Part shown: positions 380 through 31,737 of the stretch, piece after piece
Numbering within the stretch: the first letter of the stretch is position 1
Layout of the letters: each line of letters opens with the position of its first letter
From: Thermoplasmata archaeon
GTDB lineage: Archaea > Thermoplasmatota > Thermoplasmata > Lutacidiplasmatales > UBA184
Reading direction: 5' to 3'
Length of the DNA: 64,000 bases
Assembly (NCBI GenBank): GCA_022750155.1
Contig: JAKIWG010000004.1
Span: 20,783-84,782 of the forward strand
Position numbers and translations under genes: made by a program
Notes under the pieces: model-generated
Databases searched by the model: none
What the model was told of the DNA's origin: nothing
Seen by the model: the letters and a program-made list of their open reading frames with translations, nothing else

Positions 380-568
380 TCAGGAGCCGCCGGACGGGGC
401 AGGGCCGAACGTCTCGTTGTAAGTGAGCAGGTACATCCCACCCCCGATCATCACGACGAGCAGGCACAGGATCACGAGGGGGTTGGAGGAGAACTTCGCC
501 ACGTCCACGACGACCAGCGCGAGGGGCGCGGCGATCGTCAGAAGGACCGTGAGCAGACGGCCGTCCAT
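380..568 (-). CDS. 62-aa two-TM membrane miniprotein, last gene of the RHH/FtsZ-like operon
   Basis: ATG start. Two hydrophobic helices (LLTVLLTIAAPLALVVV; LVILCLLVVMIGGGMYLL). Codon third positions are almost all G/C, as in confirmed genes here. It lies 78 bp downstream of the FtsZ-like gene on the same strand. Confidence 0.6.
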   Translation of the reverse strand: MDGRLLTVLLTIAAPLALVVVDVAKFSSNPLVILCLLVVMIGGGMYLLTYNETFGPAPSGGS

Positions 569-646
569 CGAGGCACCGGACTCGCGGTGCCTCTTAACGG
601 TACCCGGAGGCGGCGCGGGCGCTTCGAGGAGAGGCGCCCGTTCGGC

Positions 647-1576
647 CTAGGGAAGGGGCGAGAGCCTCGGCACGCTCTCCACTTCGAACGTCAGCTCCGC
701 GTCGTCGCCGTACCCGAAGAACGCCGGGGCGAACGCCGTGAGGGGCGCGAGGTTGGGGATCGGCCCCGGGACGGTGGGTTCGAGTCGCTCGGGCTCCTGG
801 ACCGGGATCGGCCGCTCGAAGTGGATCGGCGCGAACGTGCCTACGCGGGACCGGCGGGTCGCCTCGAGCGCCGCCTCGGCGGGTACCAGGAACGTATCCT
901 CCACGTGAGAGGCGACCAGGTCCGCCCAGTGTCGGTCGAGCTGGGTGAACGCGAGGGTCGGTTGGCTCCGCGCGACCGCCTGATTGTCCAGGACCTCGAG
1001 CGTCGCGAGTCCCTGGTGCTGCTTGTCGACGAACGCGTCGACGAAGTGCAGGCGAGCGATGGCGCGCTCGGCCATCGCACGGCGCTCGGGCTCACATGCG
1101 AAGGGCTTGATCACGAAGAGCGAGACGACCTCAGAGGACCGCGCCGCCGCCCGCAGGACGACCGGCAACGCGCCCGTGCCCGCTCCGCCCCCCAGGCTGG
1201 CCAGGATCGTGACGAATGGAGCGCCCTCGAACAGGCGGTGCAGCGCCGGTTCCGCGGCCCGTGCGAGGATGCCCCCGACGAGTGCGGAGCCTCCGGTGTC
1301 GCCTTCGACCCCCGTCTCCGGTCCGAGGCACACCTGGCGGTCGAACTCTTCGGCGCCCTGCACGCGGGTGTCGCAGTTGATCGCGACCGTCTCCAGGTAG
1401 CGGGTGTGGCGACGGGCGATACGGGCGCCGATGCGAATGGCTCCGCCGCCGACGCAGACCAGGAGGAATCGAATGTCGTGGCCGAGGGCCAGGTCGTGGG
1501 CGATCGCCCCTCCCGCCTCGTCTACGCTTCCGGTCGCCCGATCGGGAATCCGCTCATCTCTTTCGGCTTCGTGCAT
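647..1576 (-). CDS. Divergent FtsZ/tubulin-superfamily GTPase lacking the canonical C-terminal domain
   Basis: Motifs VCVGGGAIRIGARIA (G-box), AINCDTRV (cf. FtsZ AxNTDxQ), SLGGGAGTGALP (tubulin signature GGGTG[TS]G variant), FVIKPFACEPERR (cf. VTKPFxFEGxxR) and QLDRHWADLV (T7-like). Only about 90 Pro/Glu-rich residues follow the GTPase domain. Confidence 0.8.
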   Translation of the reverse strand: MHEAERDERIPDRATGSVDEAGGAIAHDLALGHDIRFLLVCVGGGAIRIGARIARRHTRYLETVAINCDTRVQGAEEFDRQVCLGPETGVEGDTGGSALVGGILARAAEPALHRLFEGAPFVTILASLGGGAGTGALPVVLRAAARSSEVVSLFVIKPFACEPERRAMAERAIARLHFVDAFVDKQHQGLATLEVLDNQAVARSQPTLAFTQLDRHWADLVASHVEDTFLVPAEAALEATRRSRVGTFAPIHFERPIPVQEPERLEPTVPGPIPNLAPLTAFAPAFFGYGDDAELTFEVESVPRLSPLP

Positions 1577-1620
1577 CGCACCAACCCCCCCTTTTGCCGT
1601 GTCCGACCGAGCTCCCGTGG

Positions 1621-2124
1621 CTATCGGCCGAGGACCCCCTTCTTTGCGAGGTCTTCCCCGCTCCGTCTCAAAGCCCCCAGCTGCACCCGCGTCTCGGCGG
1701 CCTCATGCGCCGCGAGGCGGTGCCGCTCGACGAGCTCGGAGACCTTGAGCTCCAACTCCCCGCGTCGGACGAGATCGGCCAGGACGTCACCGATGTCCCG
1801 ACCGTTGCCGACGAGGGTTCCGTAGGCGCCCAGGGTCTCGACCTCCTCCGCGCGAAGACGGACCGGGACCTCGACGAGGCCCGATGGCGCTTCCTTCGCG
1901 GGAGGGGCGACGGCCGACATGGCCCGCGCTCGGAGGAATTCCCGCAACGCCGCCCGCATCAGCTCCGACCGGCTCCGGAACTCTCCGCTGACGACGAACG
2001 AGTCCAGGAGCTGGAGCTCCTTGCGGGCGCACCGTAGGGCGATGCGCTCTTCCTCCGGTCCGACCGTGGAGCCTGCCGACGATGCAGGTTCCAGTGGGTC
2101 GGTACGCCGGGATTTGTCGAACAC
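1621..2124 (-). CDS. Ribbon-helix-helix (CopG/NikR-type) DNA-binding protein with a C-terminal helical extension
   Basis: 'RIALRCARKELQLLDSFVVSGEFRSRSELMRAALREFL' is a typical RHH beta-alpha-alpha unit. The gene sits directly upstream (44-bp gap) of the FtsZ-like gene on the same strand. Confidence 0.7.
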   Translation of the reverse strand: MFDKSRRTDPLEPASSAGSTVGPEEERIALRCARKELQLLDSFVVSGEFRSRSELMRAALREFLRARAMSAVAPPAKEAPSGLVEVPVRLRAEEVETLGAYGTLVGNGRDIGDVLADLVRRGELELKVSELVERHRLAAHEAAETRVQLGALRRSGEDLAKKGVLGR

Positions 2125-2312
2125 GACTGGGGCGAGCTATGCAAAATTCGTATACTTATACCCATGGCTAGTGCCGTGGGGTGAACGAAAATTCCGTGTC
2201 GTCGAAGCCCCGGTTGACGTGTCGAACAAATCTCACACGGCCCGGTACGGGTGGGGTTCGGATCGAAGCGGCAGTATAACCGCCCGACGGAACGAGGCGA
2301 AATCTTGCATTG

Positions 2313-2445: not shown

Positions 2446-4671
2446 TTGACCATTTACGCAACCGCACGACCCCACATGAGCCGCCGCACGTTCCGACCGG
2501 ACCCTCGGCGCCGCAACGGGAGGGCCGTCTCCGACGTCGTCGGAACGATCCTGCTGCTGGCCCTCACGGTCACCCTCTTCGCATCGATTTTCTTCTTCGT
2601 CAATACGTTCCCCCGGCCGCCGCCCCAGCCGGCGAACCAGTTCCAGGCTCAGCTCGTCTACGGCGGGGCCCTCGGACACTCCATCCTCTGGGTCCGTATC
2701 ACCCACCTCGCGGGCCCCACGCTCTCGGGCCACACCGTGCTGATCTATCTCGGCTCGTCCGCCCACCCCACGCGGTTCACCGGGCCCTACGACATCGGCG
2801 CCGGCCTCAACCACTCCTACATCTGGAATCTCGGTCAGACCTGGTCGCTCAACATCACCAACAAGACCCTCGCCGTCCCGGACAACATCACTGTCTCGAT
2901 CGTCACCCCGACGTCGCTGCTGTTCCGGGCGACCCTACCGGGGAACAACCCGAACCTGCCCCCGGAGTTCGCCAACGTCGGAACGATCCCGATCGGCCCT
3001 GGGATCGGGCAGGGGTTCACCGTTTACGCCCAGATCCTCGACAGCAACCTCAACGTCAACTCGGTGTTCATCAACGTTAGCGAGCTACCAGGGCTCTCAG
3101 GAAGCGGCACAGTCCAGATGACCGCCCCGGGGACCAACGGGCTGTGGACCTACGCCGTGGCCAACGGAGCGACGACCAGCGCCGGGACGTTCTACCTCTT
3201 CGTCAATGCGACGGATAGCTCGGGGGCCCCCAACTCCATCGCGATCCCCGTGACGATCGAATCCGGCACGGTCACTCAGGCCAATGTCGCGCTATCGGCC
3301 AACCCGTCGGCCCCGGTGATCAACACGGCGACGAGCCTCTCGGCCTACGTGACGAACCCCGGCAGCAGCGGAGGTGCCGTGACGGCGACGTTCCAGGCCG
3401 CCGGCAAGACCGTAGGCACCGCCTCCGGGAGCCTCGGAGCGGGCGCCAGCGGCTCCTTCACGACCTCCTGGACGCCGGTGAAGCCGGGCACGGTGCTGCT
3501 CTCGGTGGTCGCCAACGTCTCCGGGGGCGGGTCGGTCTCGGGCACGCTCAACCTGACCGTGTGGCCCAAGATCGAGCTCGTGGCGCACAACGTGGTCTCG
3601 GGGAGCCTCGCGAACAACGAAAGCGCCCTCCTGGCCGGCGAGCTGACCGCGGCGGGCGTGCCGTTCACGACCGCCTTCGTGCCGTGCACCAGCGGTCTGC
3701 CGAACAGCGGCGCGACTAACATCGGTTCGTTCAACATCACGATCATCGACTTCGGCAGCGCCTCGAGCGGTAGCTGCACGTCCGCGCCCACCGCCGCCGA
3801 ACAGAACAAGATCACCGCCGCCGCGAGCACCAGCTTCTGGATCGTGGGGGCCACGGCCTTCGCCGCGCTCCCCTGCAACTCCTACCAGTCGGCGTTCTAC
3901 GCGCTGTTCAACATCAAGTTCACCGCGGGCTCCACGTGCATCACCGCCGGGGCGGCGTCCACGGGCGCCTCCTGGACGACCACCGTCGCCTCCGGGTTCC
4001 GCGGCGACGGCGGGGCGAACTGGGCCGGCACCCTCGCGATCAACCAGACCCTCCTGGGGTCGAACTCCTACCGACCGTACAACTACTTCTCCCTCGGCGT
4101 GACCACGGCGAGCTCCTCGTTCCTGAAGACCGCCGGCGGCAAGACGCTCGGGGCGTGGAAGACGAACGGCAACATCCACGACGTGGCGATGGCTACCGAC
4201 CCGGCGCTGCTCGTCGACAACCTCCCCACCGCCCAGGCGTGGGGGGCGGGCGACCCGGGCACGGCGGCGACGTACAACATCATCAACTACATGGCGGGAT
4301 TCGCCAGCTCGACCGCCCCCGGGCGCGCGCTGCTCGACTTTGGGCTCAGCGGGGTGGCCGTCGTGGGGGTCAACCATGCGTCGGCCACGACGTTCTACGT
4401 CTCCGTGCGGTCGAACGGCGCGGTCGGTGGGGTCATCGCGGTCCAGCTCCTCGTGAGCGGCAGTTACGCATACTTTGGCGGGGTCCCCGTCTCCTCGACC
4501 GTGAGCCTCACGGGCGGCGGGACCACCCAGTGGGTGACCCTCGTGTGGCAGGCCCCCGCTGCGGGAACCTACACCTTCTCTCTTCTCCTCGTCCCGCAGA
4601 CGGGGGACCTGTTCAGCCCGAATAACAGCCTTCCGATCCTCGTGACGAACCAGGGGACCGCGGTCGCTTGA
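2446..4671 (+). CDS. Large secreted protein with archaeal class III (type IV pilin-like, DUF1628-type) signal peptide and CARDB-like domains
   Basis: The N-terminus 'RRNGRAVSDVVGTILLLALTVTLFASIFFFV' matches the archaeal pilin/archaellin-type signal. The rest is S/T/G/A-rich with many N-x-S/T sequons and CARDB-like segments (NPGSSGGAVTATFQAAGK...). Alternative ATG at 2476. Confidence 0.8.
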   Translation: MTIYATARPHMSRRTFRPDPRRRNGRAVSDVVGTILLLALTVTLFASIFFFVNTFPRPPPQPANQFQAQLVYGGALGHSILWVRITHLAGPTLSGHTVLIYLGSSAHPTRFTGPYDIGAGLNHSYIWNLGQTWSLNITNKTLAVPDNITVSIVTPTSLLFRATLPGNNPNLPPEFANVGTIPIGPGIGQGFTVYAQILDSNLNVNSVFINVSELPGLSGSGTVQMTAPGTNGLWTYAVANGATTSAGTFYLFVNATDSSGAPNSIAIPVTIESGTVTQANVALSANPSAPVINTATSLSAYVTNPGSSGGAVTATFQAAGKTVGTASGSLGAGASGSFTTSWTPVKPGTVLLSVVANVSGGGSVSGTLNLTVWPKIELVAHNVVSGSLANNESALLAGELTAAGVPFTTAFVPCTSGLPNSGATNIGSFNITIIDFGSASSGSCTSAPTAAEQNKITAAASTSFWIVGATAFAALPCNSYQSAFYALFNIKFTAGSTCITAGAASTGASWTTTVASGFRGDGGANWAGTLAINQTLLGSNSYRPYNYFSLGVTTASSSFLKTAGGKTLGAWKTNGNIHDVAMATDPALLVDNLPTAQAWGAGDPGTAATYNIINYMAGFASSTAPGRALLDFGLSGVAVVGVNHASATTFYVSVRSNGAVGGVIAVQLLVSGSYAYFGGVPVSSTVSLTGGGTTQWVTLVWQAPAAGTYTFSLLLVPQTGDLFSPNNSLPILVTNQGTAVA

Positions 4672-4707: not shown

Positions 4708-5775
4708 CTACGGGAGCGGGGCGGGCGCCGATGGGGCCGTGAGCGATGCCCCGCACTTCCAGCAGGTGGCCTCGTTCGGGTACACCACGGCCTTGCAGTT
4801 GGGGCAGGTCAATTCGGCGGCGCCCCCGGTCGCCGAGGCGCTCCGGGCCGGGGGTGCGCCCGGTCGGGTCGCCGACCCCCCGGGCAGCGGTCCGGGGATG
4901 CTGTCGCGCTCCCGTTGACGGCGCGCCTCCCGGCTCTTGAAGAACGCGTAGACGAGCAGCGCGAAGAAGTAGACCAGCCCGGCGTACCCGAAGAAGGCGA
5001 GGTACACCGCCGGCAGCACGTACTCGTAGGTGCTGAGGAAATTGCCCGTCACCGGACCCTGGACCGCGCCGTAGCCGTTCCCGGGGTCGACGAAGATCCA
5101 CGTCAGGTTCTGGTTGGAAAGGTTACGGACCGCGCCGGCCATCTGCCACCACCAGATGTTGTCGCCCGGAAGCGTGACCGAGAAGCTCACCGAGGACGGC
5201 GTCGGGGTGGCATTTCCGAGCGTGTCGTTCTGCTGGAAGAACGCGTAGCCCGATTGGCAGTTCTGGGACGAATTGGAGGTCGCCCCGGGGCAGGTGCTGA
5301 CCCACAGGGTGACCCACAAGAGCGGCGAGTCGCCCCTGGGGACGTACTGCGGGTACAGCTGGGCCGTGAAGTTGAACCGGCTGCCTGCGGGGGCGTTGAA
5401 CGGGTGGACCACCGCGTTCTGGATGACCGCGCTGCCGTTGCCGTAGGGGAGGAAGGCCGCCGAGCCGACCGCGGGCGACGGTTGGAGCAACGCGCTCGCC
5501 TCCAGGGGGGCGGTCAGGGGGGCCGCGATGAGCAACGCGATCAATCCCGCGAGGGCCAGCTGGCGGGGCCGCTTCCACCCGAGATAGATCGGGACCAGCA
5601 TCCCGAAGACGAGGAAGGTGGGGACCGTGAGGTAGGGGCCGAGGTACAGGAACGCCCCGATCAGGGTGGCCGTCATGAGGCCGATCAGGGCGACTTTACC
5701 GGCGGTGGTCGCCGCGAAAGCCTTAACGCCGCCCCAACTCTGCACGGGCGGGAAGAGGCGAGCGACGCACCCCAT
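4708..5775 (-). CDS. Membrane protein with sequon-rich ectodomain and cytoplasmic C-terminal zinc ribbon
   Basis: An internal ATG of the 536-aa ORF was chosen because the upstream part is antisense to apgM. N-terminal TM helices, a late TM helix (LVYFFALLVYAFF), then TCPNCKAVVYPNEATCWKCG. Alternative start at 5676. Confidence 0.7.
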   Translation of the reverse strand: MGCVARLFPPVQSWGGVKAFAATTAGKVALIGLMTATLIGAFLYLGPYLTVPTFLVFGMLVPIYLGWKRPRQLALAGLIALLIAAPLTAPLEASALLQPSPAVGSAAFLPYGNGSAVIQNAVVHPFNAPAGSRFNFTAQLYPQYVPRGDSPLLWVTLWVSTCPGATSNSSQNCQSGYAFFQQNDTLGNATPTPSSVSFSVTLPGDNIWWWQMAGAVRNLSNQNLTWIFVDPGNGYGAVQGPVTGNFLSTYEYVLPAVYLAFFGYAGLVYFFALLVYAFFKSREARRQRERDSIPGPLPGGSATRPGAPPARSASATGGAAELTCPNCKAVVYPNEATCWKCGASLTAPSAPAPLP

Positions 5776-5782
5776 ATAAGGA

Positions 5783-7111
5783 ATGAGGCAAGATTCGCTC
5801 GCGCCACCGCCGGTGCGCACCGCGTTGGTGATTCTCGACGGGTTGGGCGACCGGCCGCACCCGGATACCGGCGGGGTCTCCCCCGTCGAAGCGGCCCGAA
5901 CCCCGCACCTGGACCAGTTGTGCCGGGACGGCCGGATGGGGGATGTGGTGCTCGTCGGTCCGGGGATCGCTCCCGAGTCGGATGCCGGGGTGCTCGCTCT
6001 GTTGGGATACGACCCCGTCCACGATTCCCCGGGGCGGGGGGTCCTCGAGGCGGTCGGCGTCGGGGTCTCTCTCGAGCCGGGCGACGTCGCCATGCGCCTG
6101 AATTTCGCCACCTCGGACGGCTCCGGGGTGATCCGCGACGCCCGCGTGGGCCGCAACCTGACCACCACGGAGGCCGAGCGGCTGGCCGCCGAGCTCACCG
6201 GCGCCGACCTGCTGAACGACCTCGGCATCCAGGCGGAGGTCCGCGCGACCGTCGGACACCGTGGGGTGCTCTGGCTCCACCCGCGGAGCGGGGGCCGGCT
6301 CTCCCCCGAGGTCACCAACTCCGATCCGTTCTACGAGAAGGTCGGAGGGATGGGCCAGGCTCGCCGACCGATCGACGGCCGCCCGCTCGCCGTCGCCGCG
6401 ACGGACCCGACGCCCGAAGCGAGGCGCACCGCCGGGGCGGTCAATGAGTTCCTCCGACGGAGCGAGGGGGTCCTCGCCGGAAGCAGTGTCAACGCGCGGA
6501 GGGCGGTCTCCGGAAAGCTCCTCGCCAACACGATCCTGCTCCGTAACGCCGGTTCCCTCCCCGACCCCCCGATGCAGCCGTTCGCCGCGCGAACCGGTTT
6601 CGACGGGGCCGCGGTGACCGAGATGCCCGTGGAGCGCGGGATCGCGCGGCTCCTCGGCCTTACTGACCTCTACGTGGGCCCCATGGGCCTAGACCGGGAC
6701 CGGTCGCTCGGCGAGCGGGCGGAGGTCACGCGCAAGGCGCTTTCGGAGCACTCATTCGTGTACGTCCACCTGAAGGGACCCGACGAGCCCGGACACGACG
6801 GTCAGGCGCTCCTGAAGAAGGAGATCATCGAGTCGCTCGACCGCGCGTTCTTCGGCCCGTTCCTGGAAGCGTTGGACTGGTCCACGACCCGACTGATCGT
6901 CACCGCGGACCACGCCACGCCCTGCGTTCTCCGGGGTCACTCCGACGACCCGGTTCCGCTCGTGCTGAGGGGCGCTGGGGTCGCTCCCGACCCCTCCAGC
7001 GGGGCCGCGGCCCCCAAGTTCAGCGAGCGGTCGGCAGGGCTCGGTTCGTTAGGCCACCTCCGCGGCCTCGACGTGCTCGGCCTGCTGGGCTCGCGTGCCC
7101 CTCCCCGATGA
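5783..7111 (+). CDS. apgM: 2,3-bisphosphoglycerate-independent phosphoglycerate mutase, archaeal type
   Basis: Motifs ILDGLGDRP, VHLKGPDEPGHDG and VTADHATPC are typical of archaeal ApgM. Length 442 aa. A possible alternative GTG start is at 5813. Confidence 0.9.
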   Translation: MRQDSLAPPPVRTALVILDGLGDRPHPDTGGVSPVEAARTPHLDQLCRDGRMGDVVLVGPGIAPESDAGVLALLGYDPVHDSPGRGVLEAVGVGVSLEPGDVAMRLNFATSDGSGVIRDARVGRNLTTTEAERLAAELTGADLLNDLGIQAEVRATVGHRGVLWLHPRSGGRLSPEVTNSDPFYEKVGGMGQARRPIDGRPLAVAATDPTPEARRTAGAVNEFLRRSEGVLAGSSVNARRAVSGKLLANTILLRNAGSLPDPPMQPFAARTGFDGAAVTEMPVERGIARLLGLTDLYVGPMGLDRDRSLGERAEVTRKALSEHSFVYVHLKGPDEPGHDGQALLKKEIIESLDRAFFGPFLEALDWSTTRLIVTADHATPCVLRGHSDDPVPLVLRGAGVAPDPSSGAAAPKFSERSAGLGSLGHLRGLDVLGLLGSRAPPR

Positions 7112-15169: not shown

Positions 15170-18100
15170 CTACCGGGTGACCGCTCCGCAGAACGGGCAG
15201 ACGAGATAGTCCGGAGGGATCTCCTTCCCGCAGGTCTGGCACGGCTTCATCCCGCCCTCGACGACCATGGGCGCGCCACCGGAGGCCGCAGCGGCGGGGG
15301 CGGTGGAGGGGGTGGTGGCCGCCGGAGGGGCTGAGCTGCGGCCCGTAGCGCGGGACGGTGCGCCGGTTTGAGCGGGAGGAGGGCTTCCCGAAGGGGGAGT
15401 GGGCTTGGCGGGGGGTCTTGTCGAAGCGGCCGCCGGTGCGGCCGTTCCCGAGCTGCCACCGGAGCCTCCGCCGCGCTTGGGCGGCGTGCCTACGGCCGGC
15501 GAGGAACCCTGAGTGTCCGCCTCGGGCTGTGGGGCGGACTCGGAGACGACCGGGGCCCCCATGCCGACGCGCGACCCCGCCGATTGCTGGAGCTTCCACT
15601 GGCTGAAGGAGGTGTAGGAGCCCTGGCGCTTCCACCAGTCCCAGAACGCGCCTTCGGAGTAATTGTCCCCGAGCTCCTTCTTCGATTCCGCCCGGAACCG
15701 CTCGACGAAGTCGGCGTAGCCCTGGCGTTCGGGGTCCTTCGCGCCCTCATCGGGCTTGCCGAGGAGCTGGGCCGCGCACTCCGGACAGACCGTGGAGTTG
15801 GACGGGATGGTGGAGCCGCACCGGCTGCACCGAACGAGGTCGGTCTCGAACTCGGCACCGCACTTGGGGCACTGGGTCGCCGTCTCGGGGATCAGGCTCC
15901 CGCATTCCCCGCACTCGACCAGCTTGCCGCGGGCCTGCCGGGGGATCACGTAGAGGAAGAGGACAGCGAGCACGGCCGCCACCCCGATGGCGATGATGAT
16001 CCAGTAGAGGAGCGGAACCCCGAGGAACTTCTGGTCCAGGAGGCCGGTGGACGGGCTGGAGCTCGTCGACCCCACGGTGAACGCCGCGGGGTAGACCGAA
16101 TAGCCGGTGACTGTGTTGTAGTAGGCCGTGACGTTGATCGAGTAGGTCCCCGAAGGCATCCCGGCGTCGAGCGCGATGAAGCCATTGTACGGCCCGGGCA
16201 CGCTGGTGAACTGACCGATGAGGTAGCTTCGGCCGGACGAGGTGATCGCGCTGACGTTGATGATCGCGAACCCTTTGCCGGAAAACTCGACGGTCCCGTT
16301 CACCGGGATGTCGGTCCCCGATTGGTAGTTGCCGGTCGGCGCCGTGAGCGTCAGATGGACGAGCGACGGCTCGACGGTCACGTTGATGATCGCCTCCGAC
16401 ACGCCGCCGATCGGACCGCCACCGCCGTTCCAGAGGACCTCGAGGACGACCTGCGCCTGCACCGTGCCTCGCTGGCCGACGATCGACTCCGAGACCGTCC
16501 AGGTGAAGTTGACGAATCGCGAGGAGCCCGCGGTGAGGGCGGGGAATGTCTGGTTCGGTGCGACGGGCGATCGCGGGAACTTGGCCCCCACGATGTACGA
16601 GAGGTTCGCATCGTACGACGCGACCGGGCCGGACCCGATGTTCTTGACGACCCCGGAGATTTCGAGCGAGTCGCCGATCCGGACGCTCGCCGGGGCGACC
16701 GGGGCGCCGCCGACCGAGAACGTCAGGGCCCCGAGCGACAGCTCCGGTCGGTATGCCGGGTAGGCCGTGGTCGCCGCCTGGTCGGCGGACGCAGGGGTCA
16801 TCTGGGCGGGGTACGGCGTGGTGGCCGCCGAGATCCACTTGGTGGAGTTGGGTCCGCCACCGGCGAGGGTCACGGCGACGTGATAGCCCCCGAGGAACGT
16901 CCCGTCCGGGAGCGTCGCCTGGGTGAGGACCCCCGAGGCGAGGAGGAGGGAGCCTACGCCCTGAGCGTCGGTGACGCCGTAGGAAGCGAGGTGGCGTGCC
17001 GCGAGCCAGGAGCTCAGATACGCGTTCAGCGACGGGTCGGCGGTCGCGAGGTTGTTGAGCGTGGTGGCCGTGGCGTTGTTCAGCTGGTTGCTGTCGTAGG
17101 AGTAGAAGGCCGCAAGTTGGGCCCCGGCGAGCGCGGACCCGCCCGCACCGGTGACGGGGAAGTCGATCCACCGGTACAGGTAGGCCGTGCTGGTGGGGTC
17201 TGGCAGCACCGCCGAGGCGTTCCAGAACACGCCGACCTTCGGGGTGGTCACCGAGAGGTTGGCGAGGTAGGCGGTGGCGCCGCCGTTGAGGAGGAGCTTC
17301 TGCGAGCCCCAGGCCCACGGGATCGGGATCCCCGAGGAGACGGAGGAGCCGGGCGTCAGGTTCCAGTTGAGGTCGAGCGTCGAGTCGACGGCCGTGATCG
17401 AGCTCCCGGCCCCGGCGACGGTGAGGTTGTAGTCGAGCACGGGAGTGACGAGGATCGAGACGTTGAAGATCGAGATCGCGGCGGAGCCGTTCGTCGCGCT
17501 GATCGTGAGCGAGATCGTCGACGGTCCGCCGAACGCACCGGAGGCGTTGAGGTACCCCGTGATCCCTGCGGCGTTGATGGCGTTGACGGCTCCCTGGGGG
17601 AGGGCGACGACCGCGTAGTTCCTTCCCGTGAAGTCGACCTGACCGAGGGCGTACGTGCCCCCGAAGGTGAGGCTGTTGGCCCCCGTGGTCTTCTGGTCGT
17701 ACGGGGTCGAGTAGCTGAACGCGAGGTCGGCCCCGGCGATCGTCGGGTCCGCGACGGCGCGGGTGAGGTTCTCCGAGTCGGTGGGGGTGGTCCACGTGTT
17801 CCATGTCGAACCGCCGCCAGAGCTGACCGAGTGGGCGCCGTTGCTGTAGACGGGGGCGGCCCCGGGCATCCCCCAACGGGTGGTGTTGTCCCGGAAGTAG
17901 TTCAGGATCGAGGAGGCCCACATCGACAGGTGGGCGCCCCCGGAGACCGTGGTCGCCGGGGCCGAGATACTGTCGTGCAGGAGCGAGAGGTTCTCCGGGG
18001 CGTTGAGGATCGCGAAATTGCGCGTGATATTGCTCGCGTTGAGCAGGAGCGAGGAGCCGGAACCGTAGACGTTGACGTAGCCCGGGAACTGGAAGGAGCT

Positions 18101-18658
18101 GTGCACGAGGGTCGCCGTGCCCGCGCTCGAGACGTTGAAGTTGAGCCTTGGGTACGCGTTCAGGATGCGCGCGTCGGTGGTCACCGTGGAGTTCCAGACG
18201 TCGAGGGTGCCCTTGACGGAGCACCAGTAGAGGTGACCGAGCCGCTGGGCGACCGTCCCCGAGTTGCTGATGAATTGTGAGAAGACGATCGTCTCGTTGC
18301 TGATGACGAGGGTACCGCCCGCGAGGACGGAGATGTTCCCCTGCTCGACGTAGACCGAGGACCCGGCTGTGGTCGGCTTGATGTAAAACGGCGAGTTCGA
18401 GGGGCCGACGATCAGGTCGCCGTGGGTTCCGGCGAGCGGGCCGAAATGGGGGCGGATCGCAGGGGCCGGCGCCGCGTCGGCGTGGACCGATCGGAGGGAA
18501 GCGGAGCTCCCCCGGGGTGACGCAGTGTGGGTGGGGATCGTGAGACTACCGAGGATCAGGAGCCCGACAAGGACCGTCAGAAGGAGTGCCGGAGCGATAC
18601 TCGCCGTCGACCTTTCGGTCCCTCCGACGGCTGGAGGGATGTGGTGAAAATGGTCCAC
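15170..18658 (-). CDS. Giant type I membrane surface protein: signal anchor, beta-helix/CARDB-like sequon-rich ectodomain, TM helix, cytoplasmic tail with three zinc ribbons
   Basis: N-terminal hydrophobic anchor (IAPALLLTVLVGLLILG). About 850 aa of S/T/G/N-rich ectodomain. TM helix LLYWIIIAIGVAAVLAVLFLYVI. Then CGECG..CPKCG, CSRCG..CPECA and a terminal CQTCG..CPFCG separated by a Pro/Ala/Ser-rich linker. Confidence 0.85.
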   Translation of the reverse strand: MDHFHHIPPAVGGTERSTASIAPALLLTVLVGLLILGSLTIPTHTASPRGSSASLRSVHADAAPAPAIRPHFGPLAGTHGDLIVGPSNSPFYIKPTTAGSSVYVEQGNISVLAGGTLVISNETIVFSQFISNSGTVAQRLGHLYWCSVKGTLDVWNSTVTTDARILNAYPRLNFNVSSAGTATLVHSSFQFPGYVNVYGSGSSLLLNASNITRNFAILNAPENLSLLHDSISAPATTVSGGAHLSMWASSILNYFRDNTTRWGMPGAAPVYSNGAHSVSSGGGSTWNTWTTPTDSENLTRAVADPTIAGADLAFSYSTPYDQKTTGANSLTFGGTYALGQVDFTGRNYAVVALPQGAVNAINAAGITGYLNASGAFGGPSTISLTISATNGSAAISIFNVSILVTPVLDYNLTVAGAGSSITAVDSTLDLNWNLTPGSSVSSGIPIPWAWGSQKLLLNGGATAYLANLSVTTPKVGVFWNASAVLPDPTSTAYLYRWIDFPVTGAGGSALAGAQLAAFYSYDSNQLNNATATTLNNLATADPSLNAYLSSWLAARHLASYGVTDAQGVGSLLLASGVLTQATLPDGTFLGGYHVAVTLAGGGPNSTKWISAATTPYPAQMTPASADQAATTAYPAYRPELSLGALTFSVGGAPVAPASVRIGDSLEISGVVKNIGSGPVASYDANLSYIVGAKFPRSPVAPNQTFPALTAGSSRFVNFTWTVSESIVGQRGTVQAQVVLEVLWNGGGGPIGGVSEAIINVTVEPSLVHLTLTAPTGNYQSGTDIPVNGTVEFSGKGFAIINVSAITSSGRSYLIGQFTSVPGPYNGFIALDAGMPSGTYSINVTAYYNTVTGYSVYPAAFTVGSTSSSPSTGLLDQKFLGVPLLYWIIIAIGVAAVLAVLFLYVIPRQARGKLVECGECGSLIPETATQCPKCGAEFETDLVRCSRCGSTIPSNSTVCPECAAQLLGKPDEGAKDPERQGYADFVERFRAESKKELGDNYSEGAFWDWWKRQGSYTSFSQWKLQQSAGSRVGMGAPVVSESAPQPEADTQGSSPAVGTPPKRGGGSGGSSGTAAPAAASTRPPAKPTPPSGSPPPAQTGAPSRATGRSSAPPAATTPSTAPAAAASGGAPMVVEGGMKPCQTCGKEIPPDYLVCPFCGAVTR

Positions 18659-28412: not shown

Positions 28413-29321
28413 TCACGCCGACCCGTGGGTGGCCGAGGGCGATGGATGGACGTCTCCCCGCCCTCGCTGCAGGAACCGACCGTACGCGGCCTGCGCCACC
28501 CGCACCCCGACGTAGAGGAAGAAGGAGCTGCTCACGATGAAGAAGCTCGGCGGGTACGGTAGGTCGCCTTCAAAGAACGCCACGAACAATCCCAGCCAGA
28601 CCGAAAACACCGCGACGAGCACGGCGACCACGATGGCCCCGAACGGACTTTTGGTCAGTCGGACGGCGATTCCGGCGGGAGTCACCATCAGGGCGAAGAT
28701 CAGGAGCACTCCGATGACCTGGACGGCGATGGAGATCGCCACCGCGAGCAGGAGCATGAACAGGAGGCCCAGGCCTGCCATCGGGAGCCCCTTCGCCTCG
28801 GCCACATCTTCGTCGAGCGAGGCAAAGAGCAGCCGGCGGTAGACCACCAGAACGATGGCGATGACCACGACGCTGGCTTCCAGGGTTAGGACCACCGCCG
28901 CGTTGCTGATCCCCTCGATCTCCCCGAACAGGATCCCGTAGGCCTCCGTCGCGAATCCCTTGTAGAGGCTGAGGAACAGCAGCCCCAACCCGAGCATGAA
29001 CGCCAGGACGGTACCGATCTCGATATCGCGCGTCGCCGCGCGCCGGCCGAGCAGCGCCATGCCGGTGGCCCCCGACATCGTGAACGCGAGCAGCCCGATG
29101 ACCGGGTTCAGGCCGAGGAACACCGCGCCGGCCGCACCGGAGAACCCCACATGGCCGAGGGCGTGGGTGGCGAACGCCGAGCGCCTCAGCACCACGAAGT
29201 AGCCGATGATCCCTGCGACGATCGCGATCACCGTGCCCGCTTCGAAGGCATTGCGCATGAACTCGAACTGCCACATCACCCGGAAATCGGTGACCAGGTT
29301 CCAGTCGAATCGGTAGCTCAT
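28413..29321 (-). CDS. Metal (Zn/Mn-type) ABC transporter permease
   Basis: Polytopic, ZnuB/TroC-like (FMRNAFEAGTVIAIVAGIIGYFVVLRR, HALGHVGFSGAAGAV). The start at ATG 29321 overlaps the ATPase stop (ATGA). Confidence 0.85.
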   Translation of the reverse strand: MSYRFDWNLVTDFRVMWQFEFMRNAFEAGTVIAIVAGIIGYFVVLRRSAFATHALGHVGFSGAAGAVFLGLNPVIGLLAFTMSGATGMALLGRRAATRDIEIGTVLAFMLGLGLLFLSLYKGFATEAYGILFGEIEGISNAAVVLTLEASVVVIAIVLVVYRRLLFASLDEDVAEAKGLPMAGLGLLFMLLLAVAISIAVQVIGVLLIFALMVTPAGIAVRLTKSPFGAIVVAVLVAVFSVWLGLFVAFFEGDLPYPPSFFIVSSSFFLYVGVRVAQAAYGRFLQRGRGDVHPSPSATHGSA

Positions 29322-30163
29322 CCGTGCTCGCCTCCGCCGCTCTCTTCTCCCCCGACAATGACGAGGTTGTTGCGGGAGTCGCGGAGCACTTCGACGGGGA
29401 CCCCGTACAGGGCCGAAAGGGTCTCCGAGGTCAGTACCGTGTCCGGCGAACCGGTCGCCATTCGGCCGTTGGCGATGTAGATCACCTTGTCGAGGCACTG
29501 GATGAGCGGGTTGATGTCATGGGCCACGAGGAGCGTGGTCACGTTGCGGGACCGCACCAGGCGGGACACCAGAGCGACCAGGTCCCGGCTGCGTCGGAGG
29601 TCGAGATTGGAGAGCGGCTCGTCCAGGAGGAGCATCTCCGGGTGCCCGATCATCGCCTCGGCGAGGAATATTCGTTGGAGTTCGCCGCCGGAAAGCGTCC
29701 CGACGCACGCATGGGCGAGATCGGTGGCCCCCACCGATTCGAGGGCGGCTGCCGCGGCCTCGTGCTCGGCGCGGCGGGCGAGTCCCGGTCCCCAGCGCGT
29801 CCCGCTCACCCCGAGCCGCACGAAACTCTCGCAGTCGATGTGGGTGTCGATGTCGATGGAGTGGCGCTGCGGCACGTACCCGATGAGCGGATTTCCGCGG
29901 CGTGGGGAACGGCCGAGGACGGACAGGGTGCCGCGCAGGGGTCGCTGGAGTCCGAGCATCATCCGGAACAGCGTCGTCTTTCCGGCTCCGTTCGGGCCGA
30001 TGACCGCCACGAACTCGCCGCGCCGGACCTCGAAGCTCGCATCGCTCCAGATGACGCGGTCCCGGTATCCGACCTCCAGGTGATCGGCGCGGATCACCGA
30101 CGGTTCGTCGGACGGCTCTGGCCCGATCGGGACCACCGGCTCGACGTACGGTCGGGCGCTCAC
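29318..30163 (-). CDS. Metal ABC transporter ATP-binding protein
   Basis: Walker A GPNGAGKTT, signature LSGGELQR and Walker B LLLDEP. Confidence 0.9.
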   Translation of the reverse strand: MSARPYVEPVVPIGPEPSDEPSVIRADHLEVGYRDRVIWSDASFEVRRGEFVAVIGPNGAGKTTLFRMMLGLQRPLRGTLSVLGRSPRRGNPLIGYVPQRHSIDIDTHIDCESFVRLGVSGTRWGPGLARRAEHEAAAAALESVGATDLAHACVGTLSGGELQRIFLAEAMIGHPEMLLLDEPLSNLDLRRSRDLVALVSRLVRSRNVTTLLVAHDINPLIQCLDKVIYIANGRMATGSPDTVLTSETLSALYGVPVEVLRDSRNNLVIVGGEESGGGEHG

Positions 30164-30170
30164 GGTTCCC

Positions 30171-31265
30171 TCAATGCCCCAGCTGGTACGCGTTCAGGGC
30201 GTTGTACAGCCCGAGGTATTCGGCGTACATCCACGTCTGGAACGTGACCCCGGGCGGCTGGATCGTCTCGGTGACGGCCACGACGGTCACGTTGTGCGAC
30301 GCCGCGATCGACTTCAGGGTCTCCGTGATCGGCGTCACGGTCTGGGCGTTGTAGACCATCACCCGGACCTTCCCGCTCTCGAGTTGGCACTGGAACGCCA
30401 CCACGGACTGGGCGGGTGGGTCATTGCCCTCCGCGACCGCCTGCATGAACTCCGGGGGAGAAACGAGGTTGAGCCCCGTGAAGTTCGCCAGGTAGACGAA
30501 GATGTCCTCGGTCGCCGCGACCACCGTGCCGGCAAAATGCTGACGAATGCTGGTCGCTTCTCCGTACAGCGTGGCGAGGGAACTGTTGAGCGAGGCATAC
30601 TGCGACTGGAAGTACGGGGTCTCCCCCGGAGCGATCTGGACGAGGTCGGAGTACATCGCCGAGACGGTCCGATTGACGTACGCGGGGTTGTACCACATGT
30701 GAGGATTATCCGAAACGATGCCACCCCCGACGACGACCCCGTTGAGGTCGCCTACGTTCAGCACGACCTGGCCGGCGTGGTGGCTTGCGCTCAGAAGGGT
30801 GAGGGCCCAGTCGTCGTAGCCGACTCCGTTGACGATCACGAGCTGGGCGTTCGAGACCGCGATGGCGTCGGACGTGTTCGCCTCATACTCATGGGGGTCG
30901 GCGTTGGGGTCGGAGACGATGCTAAGGACCGAGGTCTGATTCCCCCCGAGCTGAGCGACGAGGCTGCCCCAGAAGTTCTCGGCGGCCACGACCTGGATCA
31001 CGGAGGAGGTGGAGGGTTTCGGATGCGTCCCTTCCCCGCTGGAAAACGGGCGGGCCGAGAGCGAAACGTTGCCGGTCATTCCCCGGCTTTGGCCGATCGT
31101 CGCCCACCTCGGCCCGTGAACGGCCGATGTGGCGCTAGCAGGGGGCGAGGGGACCCCGACGCACGGGTCGCTGGGAGCGTGGCTGACGAATGCCGCGTAG
31201 CCGACGGCCCCGACGACGACGGTGAGTATTGCCGCCACCGCGGGGATCTTCCATGATCGTTGCAT
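30171..31265 (-). CDS. Metal ABC transporter substrate-binding protein (ZnuA/TroA cluster 9)
   Basis: N-terminal anchor (IPAVAAILTVVVGAVGY). Metal-site motifs DPHEYE and NPHMWYNP. Confidence 0.85.
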   Translation of the reverse strand: MQRSWKIPAVAAILTVVVGAVGYAAFVSHAPSDPCVGVPSPPASATSAVHGPRWATIGQSRGMTGNVSLSARPFSSGEGTHPKPSTSSVIQVVAAENFWGSLVAQLGGNQTSVLSIVSDPNADPHEYEANTSDAIAVSNAQLVIVNGVGYDDWALTLLSASHHAGQVVLNVGDLNGVVVGGGIVSDNPHMWYNPAYVNRTVSAMYSDLVQIAPGETPYFQSQYASLNSSLATLYGEATSIRQHFAGTVVAATEDIFVYLANFTGLNLVSPPEFMQAVAEGNDPPAQSVVAFQCQLESGKVRVMVYNAQTVTPITETLKSIAASHNVTVVAVTETIQPPGVTFQTWMYAEYLGLYNALNAYQLGH

Positions 31266-31266
31266 C

Positions 31267-31737
31267 TCAGGTACGACTCCCTGCCCGCGGAACCACCGGC
31301 TCGGGTCGTGCGGGCTGGCCCGACGAGTGGCATGGCGCGATCGGTTCGCCGTGGGGACATTCGGTCGGGTGCTTCTGGACCCGGCAAACCTCCTCGACCG
31401 TCCGGTGGGAGATCGCCAGGTCGATCTCGCGCGCGGCCGCGCAGGTCTGCGCGGGTGCGAGGCCCAGGCTACCGAATAGAGTCTCGGCGACGCGATGATG
31501 GCGTTGGTACTCCCGCAGGGCCGAGCGACCGCGCTCCGTCAACCGGCTCTTTCCCCGGTGGCGGGAGACCAGGCCGAGGTGTTCGAGGGGAGTCACGTGC
31601 CCGAGCGCCGACGGCGGGCTCTGCCTGAGCGAGGCAGCGATCATCTTGAGGGCGACCCCACCTTCCGCCGTCTCCCTCGCTCCGATGACCTGGAGCGCCT
31701 CGACCTGTCGGCGAGTGAGCTTCTGGAGCGTCTCCAC
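31267..31737 (-). CDS. DtxR/MntR-family metal-dependent transcriptional regulator
   Basis: N-terminal wHTH (LTRRQVEALQVIG..), a dimerisation/metal domain and a terminal 'ECPHGEPI' motif. First gene of the ABC importer operon. Confidence 0.8.
   Translation of the reverse strand: METLQKLTRRQVEALQVIGARETAEGGVALKMIAASLRQSPPSALGHVTPLEHLGLVSRHRGKSRLTERGRSALREYQRHHRVAETLFGSLGLAPAQTCAAAREIDLAISHRTVEEVCRVQKHPTECPHGEPIAPCHSSGQPARPEPVVPRAGSRT

Follow-up and report, generated by a model that had tools for sequence, protein, structure and literature searches.

Near one end of a 64,000-nucleotide (nt) stretch of archaeal DNA (Thermoplasmata archaeon, assembly GCA_022750155.1, contig JAKIWG010000004.1, positions 20,783 to 84,782), three genes lie on the same strand, the middle one of which encodes a short relative of FtsZ. 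The whole 64-kilobase (kb) stretch is referred to as the window, and positions are counted from its first letter. In the list of open reading frames (ORFs), the three genes are, in the order of transcription:

1621 to 2124, minus strand: gene of a putative CdrS-like ribbon-helix-helix (RHH) regulator, 167 amino acids (aa)
647 to 1576, minus strand: gene of the short, probably FtsZ2-derived protein, 309 aa
380 to 568, minus strand: gene of a miniprotein with two transmembrane (2-TM) segments, 62 aa

The RHH gene is separated from the ftsZ-like gene by 44 nt, and the ftsZ-like gene from the miniprotein gene by 78 nt. An earlier account made from the DNA letters, called the sequence-only reading below, had reported these same-strand ORFs and gaps, and it agrees exactly with the ORF list. 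The strings that it quoted from the middle protein (GGGAIRIG, GGGAGTG, KPFACEPERR, LDRHWADL and FFGYGDDAELTFEVES) are likewise all found in the window.

The 309-aa protein matches the Pfam Tubulin family (PF00091) over residues 40-176 with 42.2 bits, against a gathering cut-off of 33. Its score with the NCBIfam ftsZ model TIGR00065 is 61.2 bits, below the curated cut-off of 295.2, and FtsZ chains from the PDB align to residues 39-183 only (E ~2e-11). An AlphaFold model built from a 38-sequence alignment (predicted local distance difference test, pLDDT, 79; predicted template modelling score, pTM, 0.71) comprises a GTPase domain, a long helix and then disorder, and Foldseek superimposes it on FtsZ structures with E 2e-11 across only ~200 aligned columns. 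The FtsZ C-terminal subdomain (PF12327, strands S7-S10) gives no Pfam FtsZ_C match in the protein. Together with the disorder past residue 247 and the ~200 Foldseek columns, this bears out the statement of the sequence-only reading that no recognisable FtsZ C-terminal subdomain is present. The parts of the protein map to the window as follows:

965 to 1468, minus strand: FtsZ/tubulin GTPase domain (residues 37-204), which keeps T1 GGGA, NCD, T4 GGGAGTG, KPFACE and LDN
836 to 949, minus strand: long helix equivalent to H7 (residues 210-247; 38 residues), which holds LDRHWADL and the invariant P232-x-E234
704 to 835, minus strand: variable, Pro-rich disordered linker (residues 248-291), with pLDDT mostly <60 and weakly conserved columns
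677 to 703, minus strand: conserved C-terminal peptide DAELTFEVE (residues 292-300), defined from the 38-sequence alignment

Model confidence is high over most of the GTPase domain (pLDDT at least 90), with values of 69-86 at residues ~61-100. GGG (T1), NxD, GGGxGxG (T4), PFxxE..RR, LDN and P232-x-E234 are invariant in the 38-sequence alignment, and the G positions of the GTPase signature, present here as GGGAGTG, are invariant across the family. When the protein is aligned with FtsZ1 and FtsZ2, LDRHWADL coincides with the start of canonical H7, and the SLIN-xDFAD T7 segment and all that lies beyond it are missing; the 'T7-like' label given to LDRHWADL earlier was therefore mistaken. Neither a T7 loop nor an H8 is recognisable after the H7 helix, the NxDxxD segment being deleted or unalignable relative to FtsZ1 and FtsZ2.

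The protein ends in a short peptide with the consensus [DE][AV]ELTFE[VI], in which E294 and E298 are invariant and L295, T296 and F297 are at least 90% conserved. Deep relatives carry the equivalents VELLFEAE, VEILLEVA and VECVIEAV. The canonical C-terminal motif of archaeal FtsZ is GID (PMC8178401), and this SepF-binding motif is absent from the tail of the 309-aa protein. In a MAFFT alignment, DAELTFEV falls beneath S9, a strand of the canonical C-terminal subdomain (DANIIFGA, NATIIWGA), with only D, A and F shared; on this alignment, the peptide could be a relic of S9 or the match could be due to chance.

The short length of the protein is a trait of its family. A protein search returned 213 matches, and at least 120 clusters share the same architecture, at 274-324 aa (nearly all ~300-310 aa) and with PF00091 as the only domain; an identical protein is encoded in a 'Thermoplasmata archaeon' metagenome-assembled genome (MAG; locus tag L3K19_02205). 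When 1.8 billion representatives were searched with the family profile, only 21 proteins reached E <1e-30, after which significance dropped sharply. With each species represented by one genome, a scan yielded 52 loci, nearly all labelled 'Thermoplasmata archaeon' and two only 'bacterium', from a set that includes Candidatus Lutacidiplasma silvani and UBA184. The carriers, among them the uncultured soil archaeon from which the window comes, belong to the order Lutacidiplasmatales, in which the gene is apparently order-wide. Members of this order have ~69% guanine plus cytosine (GC) and genomes of ~2.1 Mb (PMC9287336); neither that paper nor its supplements mention FtsZ. Across the order, the ftsZ-like locus is chromosomal, single-copy and set in conserved housekeeping synteny.

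This conservation refutes the view that the gene is a decaying or mis-assembled ftsZ2, whether as a pseudogene or a frameshift artefact, to which we attach almost no credence. Only 78 nt separate its stop codon from the next gene, so there is no space for a frameshifted C-terminal domain, and tblastn with Escherichia coli FtsZ found no C-terminal-domain match near the 309-aa gene. The absence of the subdomain in all of the ~300-aa relatives points the same way. Hundreds of intact ~300-aa ORFs with invariant GTP motifs and a conserved tail, drawn from at least 52 species and many metagenomes, are difficult to reconcile with decay. What speaks for decay is that an ftsZ-like gene is split over two frames in two long-read MAG loci (L053, 4905-5954; L054, 4905-5838), in the first of which the miniprotein lies 4 kb off. 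These splits are probably homopolymer sequencing errors.

The family is probably a derived branch of Thermoplasmatota FtsZ2. Past the sharp drop in the profile search lie canonical FtsZs and short FtsZs of 266-303 aa, and the best full-length matches outside the family are FtsZs of Thermoplasmatota (Natronoplasma, Thermoplasmata, Poseidoniia). Family members score 63-108 bits against a profile of RHH-linked full-length FtsZ2 from Thermoplasmatota (~94-108 except for the two most divergent). Each of them scores lower against other FtsZ2 (51-85 bits), FtsZ1 (44-77 bits) and bacterial FtsZ (52-95 bits), leaving a margin of ~10-30 bits. RHH-linked archaeal FtsZs of the 'DNN-type', which score 248 bits with Methanocaldococcus jannaschii FtsZ1 ('FtsZ homolog 1') as against 344 bits for the 'EN-type', are by these scores FtsZ2. 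No RHH neighbours were found with the family RHH profile at the FtsZ loci of DPANN and Hydrothermarchaeota (L056-L083), and these loci are therefore unusable as context-labelled FtsZ2 anchors.

In a neighbour-joining (NJ) tree of 201 columns and 200 bootstraps, all replicates (100%) recover the window family as monophyletic. A group of all short forms appears in 66% of bootstraps, nested among full-length FtsZs of Thermoplasmatota, in a tree whose deep nodes are unsupported and whose branches are long. The sequence-only reading had taken the protein to be distinct from the canonical division FtsZ, which holds for its structure and, given the profile scores and this nesting, probably fails for its ancestry. 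It had also proposed a family outside FtsZ/CetZ of the FtsZL1/FtsZL2 kind and had called for placement by profile hidden Markov models and a tree. By scores and NJ tree, the family falls nearest to Thermoplasmatota FtsZ2, and it lacks the domains and gene contexts of FtsZL1 and FtsZL2. Membership in FtsZL1, FtsZL2, CetZ or TubZ was ruled out by Pfam, PDB and PHROG matches and by published family features.

Shortened FtsZs extend beyond the Lutacidiplasmatales. The sister order Methanomassiliicoccales is rich in them, as exemplified by P0160 (273 aa), which scores 229 bits with TIGR00065 and keeps an ExDVKEM remnant of T7/H8. Its relatives form >120 clusters of 257-310 aa (mostly 260-273 aa) with PF00091 only, some of them on contigs of up to 2.45 Mb. 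Since P0160 stands nearer to canonical FtsZ and retains the T7/H8 remnant, the window family is placed at the most diverged end of the short FtsZs. Most short FtsZs of Methanomassiliicoccales (L084; P0160, P0285-P0403) are labelled 'hypothetical protein' at NCBI; they lack FtsZ_C and have an RHH gene upstream. Our literature search found no description of the Methanomassiliicoccales short FtsZ, nor of archaeal FtsZ2 descendants without the C-terminal subdomain.

In the literature, an RHH or 'ParD'-like gene lies beside ftsZ2, and CdrS is its regulator (PMC7439475, PMC8406309, PMC9871819, PMC8178401); the RHH-ftsZ2 pairing is conserved across Euryarchaeota (PMC7439475, PMC9871819). The 167-aa protein has a borderline match to Pfam RHH_1 (20.4 against a cut-off of 20.5; E 5e-4), and its best NCBIfam match is CdrS (NF058555), at 26.5 bits against a cut-off of 100. 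The RHH assignment is thus weak but consistent. An N-terminal RHH at residues ~24-68 is followed by a second RHH-like module at ~84-125 and a C-terminal helix, and hhalign aligns the two modules in register (probability 79%, E 1.6e-5), which suggests a tandem RHH protein. A single-sequence AlphaFold 2 model of the protein (pLDDT 55) was uninformative on this point.

A gene of 104-167 aa stands directly upstream of every FtsZ gene examined across Thermoplasmata loci, even though the flanking genes differ. The loci comprised five with short FtsZs (L084 from Methanomassiliicoccales, L091, L093, L095 and L097) and three with full-length FtsZs bearing PF00091 and PF12327 (L087, L090 and L094). Eight of these upstream proteins can be aligned along their full length, which takes in an RHH, a linker with Pro and a second beta-alpha-alpha module. 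The family RHH profile recognises the proteins of L095 and L097, and for the L094 protein the sole match is Pfam RHH_1. As the RHH proteins of short and full-length FtsZ2 loci are homologous, the window locus is best viewed as a derived cdrS-ftsZ2 operon, and the parallel that had been drawn with the haloarchaeal pair stands. At L087, a hot-spring Thermoplasmata MAG, a 282-aa protein without a Pfam family is encoded 26 nt past the full-length RHH-linked FtsZ2 (5077-5925, plus strand) and may be a lineage-specific FtsZ2 partner.

The 62-aa miniprotein, laid out as MDGR - TM1 - FSSNP - TM2 - YNETF with homologues ending in YxE, matches no family in Pfam, NCBIfam, PADLOC or PHROG. Wherever the contig reaches far enough, it follows the ftsZ-like gene at nearly all of the 52 genome loci. 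A search from the miniprotein side gave 25 metagenome contigs that extend sufficiently upstream, and the ftsZ-like gene immediately precedes the miniprotein gene in 25 of 25. Deep relatives (60-63% GC; NDK-Sua5-M24 flanks; tails VELLFEAE or VECVIEAV) keep the triad of RHH, FtsZ-like and miniprotein genes. Both neighbours are thus retained in relatives, as the sequence-only reading had anticipated, and the miniprotein persists even where flanking genes differ. It is absent at full-length FtsZ loci and at those of the Methanomassiliicoccales type. The miniprotein thus co-occurs specifically with the ELTFEV-type tail. This co-occurrence fits, and does not prove, the earlier idea that the miniprotein serves as an anchor and the tail as a docking peptide.

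Promoter regions were compared at 46 loci for the RHH start and 41 loci for the miniprotein start, in DNA of 65-70% GC. The signals in the window are:

2153 to 2160, minus strand: TATA box TATAAGTA that serves the RHH-ftsZ-like operon, at -36..-29 relative to its GTG start
2137 to 2149, minus strand: conserved block GAATTTTGCATAG, downstream of the TATA box and ahead of the start codon (consensus of 46 loci: G.A.TTT.CAT, at -25..-14)
1579 to 1590, minus strand: purine-rich, Shine-Dalgarno-like GGGGGGTTGGTG in the 44-nt spacer between the RHH and ftsZ-like genes
616 to 640, minus strand: GC-rich hairpin CGGGCGC-N11-GCGCCCG (inverted repeat I5) right after the ftsZ-like stop codon, read from the window alone
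592 to 597, minus strand: TATA-like TTAAGA of the miniprotein promoter, at -29..-24 from the miniprotein ATG

The family TATA consensus, GTTTAAGTA, lies at -37..-29, and seven of the eight positions from -36 to -29 are 89-100% A/T, the exception being a conserved G at -31. Its position relative to the GTG implies an RHH-ftsZ-like mRNA that is leaderless or near-leaderless. The GAATTTTGCATAG block may belong to the promoter as a proximal element, or it may be one more site for a regulator. A palindrome in the stretch from the TATA box to the start codon was considered as an operator and found unconvincing: arms of at least 5 nt occur in 8 of 44 loci, and shuffles yield 3 on average and 7 at most. 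Among ~50 loci, the spacers between the RHH and ftsZ-like genes are mostly 29-45 nt long, contain no TATA or A/T box, and mostly end in a G-rich stretch of the GGGGG(T)G type before the start. With a Shine-Dalgarno-like site and no TATA box in the spacer, the RHH and ftsZ-like genes form one operon.

The miniprotein gene has an A/T-rich box of its own, (C/G)TTAAGAG or TTTATGAG, at about -31..-24, where positions -31..-26 are 63-95% A/T against a background of ~25%. This conserved TATA box makes it a separate, leaderless unit and rules out the single three-gene operon that had been proposed. In 35 of the 41 loci, the ftsZ-like and miniprotein genes lie 23-115 nt apart; in the other six, the distance is 259-4023 nt. 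The 78-nt spacer of the window also contains a second GC-rich hairpin (GAGGCACCG-N6-CGGTGCCTC; 572-595, minus strand) that ends 1 nt before the miniprotein ATG.

Repeats at the RHH promoter may form the operator of the regulator. Two copies are found in the window:

2215 to 2229, minus strand: upstream motif copy TTGTTCGACACGTCA, candidate operator, ~104 nt before the RHH start codon
2115 to 2123, minus strand: the other copy of TGTTCGACA in the window, which overlaps the start codon of the RHH gene (GTG TTC GAC AA)

Of the 46 loci, 43 have the core GTTCGAC at position -104 (+/-1) relative to the RHH start, mostly inside a conserved TTGTTCGACACGTCAG block, and another GTTCGAC lies exactly 21 nt farther upstream in about half of the 46. 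The start-codon region, GTGTTCGACAA, provides a third copy; GTGTTCGACA is identical there in ~43 of 46 loci, and the RHH protein begins with a conserved MFD, whereas its next ~20 residues are not conserved. The 9-mer TGTTCGACA occurs twice in the window, only at the RHH promoter, with 0.27 copies expected and two copies in 3 of 100 shuffles; the 15-mer TTGTTCGACACGTCA is unique in the window. Related repeats of the GTnGGACA or TATGACA type mark the RHH promoters of other orders (GTCGGACA/TGTCCGAC, GTAGGACA, and TATGACA five or six times). The TGTTCGACA repeats are a candidate operator, to which the RHH protein probably binds. A conserved, locus-specific repeat at this promoter makes the autoregulation suggested earlier plausible.

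The other genes of the window are housekeeping genes. A gene divergent from the RHH operon (2446-4671, plus strand) codes for 741 aa, with an N-terminus of the archaeal type IV pilin kind and with a CARDB domain; L001 also has Pilin_N genes on that side, and the deep relatives L095 and L097 have none. Next to it (4708-5780, minus strand) is a multi-pass membrane protein without a Pfam family, which terminates in a cytoplasmic zinc ribbon, CPNC...CWKC. Its 536-aa ORF (4708-6318) is over-long, overlapping the phosphoglycerate-mutase gene (5783-7111, plus strand), and the true length is probably ~355 aa, as in L002. Farther along, a 1162-aa protein (15170-18658, minus strand) bears several zinc-ribbon or double-zinc-ribbon (DZR) domains near its C-terminus and no other Pfam domain. 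DZR domains occur in CdrL, and zinc fingers occur in the haloarchaeal FtsZ1 anchor CdpC. An ordinary housekeeping metal-uptake operon (ZnuA, ABC ATPase, ABC-3 permease) with a DtxR-type (Fe_dep_repr_C) regulator gene lies at 28413-31737 on the minus strand. A toxin-antitoxin or defence cassette was ruled out, as PADLOC gave no matches.

In an FtsZ filament, each subunit's GTP-binding top face is complemented by the bottom face of the next, made up of the T7 loop and the C-terminal subdomain. Filament formation thus requires the two halves together, and FtsZ mutants altered in the bottom face behave as cappers. Engineered capper mutants of this kind in bacterial FtsZ were reportedly described by Redick et al. 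in 2005 and by Du et al. in 2018. Against this background, we hold with moderate confidence that the short protein is a GTP-binding, non-self-polymerising division factor that docks on, caps or tethers canonical FtsZ filaments. The CdrS-like, apparently tandem RHH regulator is expressed from its strong TATA promoter as a leaderless or near-leaderless mRNA and probably binds the repeated TGTTCGACA motifs at its own promoter; the FtsZ2-derived gene shares this transcript and is translated from the Shine-Dalgarno site. Having kept the top face (GTPase domain and H7) and lost the bottom face (T7 loop and C-terminal subdomain), the FtsZ2 descendant would bind GTP, and alone would neither build nor extend a canonical protofilament. 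As an accessory division subunit, it would dock through its top face on the exposed bottom end of canonical FtsZ filaments. The docked subunit may then cap filaments or tune their dynamics and/or tie their ends, via the tail peptide, to a membrane adaptor. The prime adaptor candidate would be the adjacent, separately transcribed 2-TM miniprotein, with SepF as an alternative. In this account, the comparisons establish the identity, architecture, conservation and operon structure and, as probable, the descent from FtsZ2; GTP binding, capping or tethering, contact between tail and miniprotein, and autoregulation are inferred.

In favour of a partner filament, genomes of Methanomassiliicoccaceae encode 3-6 FtsZ-family proteins and SepF (Supplementary Data 1, PMC8178401), among which short FtsZs may have been counted or missed. 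Several points weigh against an accessory division factor. The same Supplementary Data 1 (PMC8178401) lists two members of the Methanomassiliicoccales, Candidatus Methanomethylophilus alvus and a Methanomethylophilaceae MAG, without FtsZ, SepF, FtsA or ESCRT-III, and the partner filament may therefore not always exist. The 64-kb window holds no canonical FtsZ1 or SepF, and tblastn with E. coli FtsZ found no other FtsZ in it. The short form could be either a replacement of FtsZ2 or an extra paralogue. The usual Asn is missing from the T1 motif, and H7 has diverged. The miniprotein is absent at short-FtsZ loci of the Methanomassiliicoccales type, and with only ~4-6 residues at each cytoplasmic end, it offers scant docking surface. 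The NJ tree is crude, and long-branch attraction could have grouped the short forms artificially.

Three other functions were weighed. In line with the sequence-only reading, the short protein might build a non-canonical, membrane-tethered assembly of its own, for example through the extended H7 or a new longitudinal interface, and be anchored by the miniprotein via the ELTFEV tail in an FtsZ-independent role in membrane remodelling or shape. The strict co-occurrence of miniprotein and ELTFEV-type tail, in this family only and even in other genomic contexts, would fit such an assembly, as would a tail unlike the SepF-type 'GID' motif and the invariant P232-x-E234, which might make a new interface on the 38-residue helix. 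Yet the protein shares its ancestry and its regulator with the division gene ftsZ2, the miniprotein is transcribed on its own and has minimal cytoplasmic exposure, the Methanomassiliicoccales short FtsZs do without both miniprotein and tail motif, and no polymer interface is predicted; we regard a separate assembly as unlikely. Slightly less likely still is a non-cytoskeletal, GTP-dependent switch or decoy, a monomer or dimer that never enters a filament and that titrates an FtsZ partner such as SepF or senses GTP to time division. Invariant GTP-pocket motifs alongside lost polymerisation surfaces agree with a switch, and the disordered linker that leads to a short, conserved peptide has the typical form of a tail that binds a partner. 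That tail is unlike the canonical archaeal FtsZ tail, however, which makes competition for SepF not obvious, and nothing separates a switch or decoy from capping.

RHH proteins are often centromere-binding, and TubZ binds its adaptor via its C-terminal tail. This general knowledge, the repeated motifs upstream of the RHH gene and a weak PHROG match to PhuZ (E 2.5e-4) could be taken to indicate a TubZ/TubR-like DNA-segregation cassette of a mobile element, with the RHH protein as centromere-binding adaptor and the tubulin-like GTPase as motor. This is largely refuted and appears very improbable. The chromosomal, single-copy locus in its conserved synteny does not resemble a mobile element, no iteron or tandem arrays are present at the locus, and PADLOC and PHROG scans found no phage or defence neighbours. 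PhuZ matches in the PDB reach E 0.3-0.4 and no TubZ chain is among the matches listed, against 2e-11 for FtsZ; the RHH protein, moreover, is homologous to those at full-length FtsZ2 loci.

A wider evolutionary reading is offered tentatively, as a possibility less probable than the accessory division factor. A branch of Thermoplasmata (Lutacidiplasmatales, Methanomassiliicoccales and relatives) may have made of FtsZ2 a 'half-FtsZ' with a nucleotide-binding face only, which in Lutacidiplasmatales became a filament-end cap or tether, or a new polymer, coupled by ELTFEV to the dedicated 2-TM miniprotein. If true, this would be an unrecognised way to control or replace Z-ring constriction in archaea that mostly lack a wall. 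An FtsZ2 descendant that is conserved and regulated and yet consists of the top half only challenges the view that every archaeal 'FtsZ2' forms filaments, and surveys of FtsZ1/FtsZ2 presence and absence in Thermoplasmatota may mask functional change. The family also represents a natural experiment on the role of a top-face-only FtsZ in capping, tethering or signalling, with two concrete candidate partners in the miniprotein and in the RHH regulator with its candidate operator. A milder short form appears to be present in cultured Methanomassiliicoccus species, which makes experiments feasible.

The closest known system is the cdrS-ftsZ2 pair of Halobacteria (Halobacterium salinarum, Haloferax volcanii), in which the gene of a small RHH regulator likewise immediately precedes a gene of the FtsZ2 lineage and shares its transcript. 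The regulator of the window has 167 aa and apparently two RHH modules, whereas haloarchaeal CdrS has ~60 aa and one. The window locus further differs in that its FtsZ2 descendant lacks T7 and the C-terminal subdomain and carries another tail motif, and in that a 2-TM miniprotein gene is always next. Compared with canonical two-domain FtsZ (TIGR00065; PDB 1W58, 1FSZ and 6Y1V, among others), the protein shares the GTPase fold and the GGG, NxD, GGGxGxG and PFxxE motifs, but it has no FtsZ_C subdomain, no NxDxxD T7 loop and a 13-residue insertion after H5. The short FtsZs of Methanomassiliicoccales and other Thermoplasmata, with which it groups in the NJ tree, also have an upstream RHH gene and PF00091 as sole domain, and end soon after H7 with a low-complexity tail. 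In contrast to the window family, the Methanomassiliicoccales-type proteins are closer to canonical FtsZ, keep ExDVKEM, and lack the ELTFEV tail and the miniprotein neighbour. The bottom-face mutants that are the source of the capping logic similarly combine an intact GTP-binding top face with a defective bottom. They are point changes in full-length proteins studied in vitro and in vivo, whereas the window family is without the whole bottom half and is known from sequence.

FtsZL1 and FtsZL2 resemble the family in having a divergent GTPase domain of the FtsZ superfamily and no recognisable C-terminal domain of FtsZ (PMC2875224). FtsZL1 combines Tubulin_2 (PF13809) with a coiled coil and an alpha-helical C-terminal domain in operons with vWA, kinase and GTPase genes, and FtsZL2 is proteobacterial, with a ~300-aa alpha/beta C-terminal region, T7 present and no gene association (PMC2875224). 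The window family has PF00091 only and RHH and miniprotein genes as neighbours, unlike FtsZL1; unlike FtsZL2, it is archaeal, has a ~60-aa disordered tail, lacks T7 and keeps conserved neighbours. Just as the RHH-ftsZ2 link is already known, so are truncated bacterial FtsZ paralogues, and those of Hyphomicrobiales (Agrobacterium FtsZ1/FtsZ3), proposed to tune division through co-assembly, are likewise naturally shortened FtsZs that have long been retained (bioRxiv 10.1101/2025.09.29.679267). The truncation is of the opposite kind: most bacterial duplicates keep both globular subdomains and lose the linker and C-terminal peptide, whereas the window family has lost the C-terminal subdomain and kept the linker and peptide.

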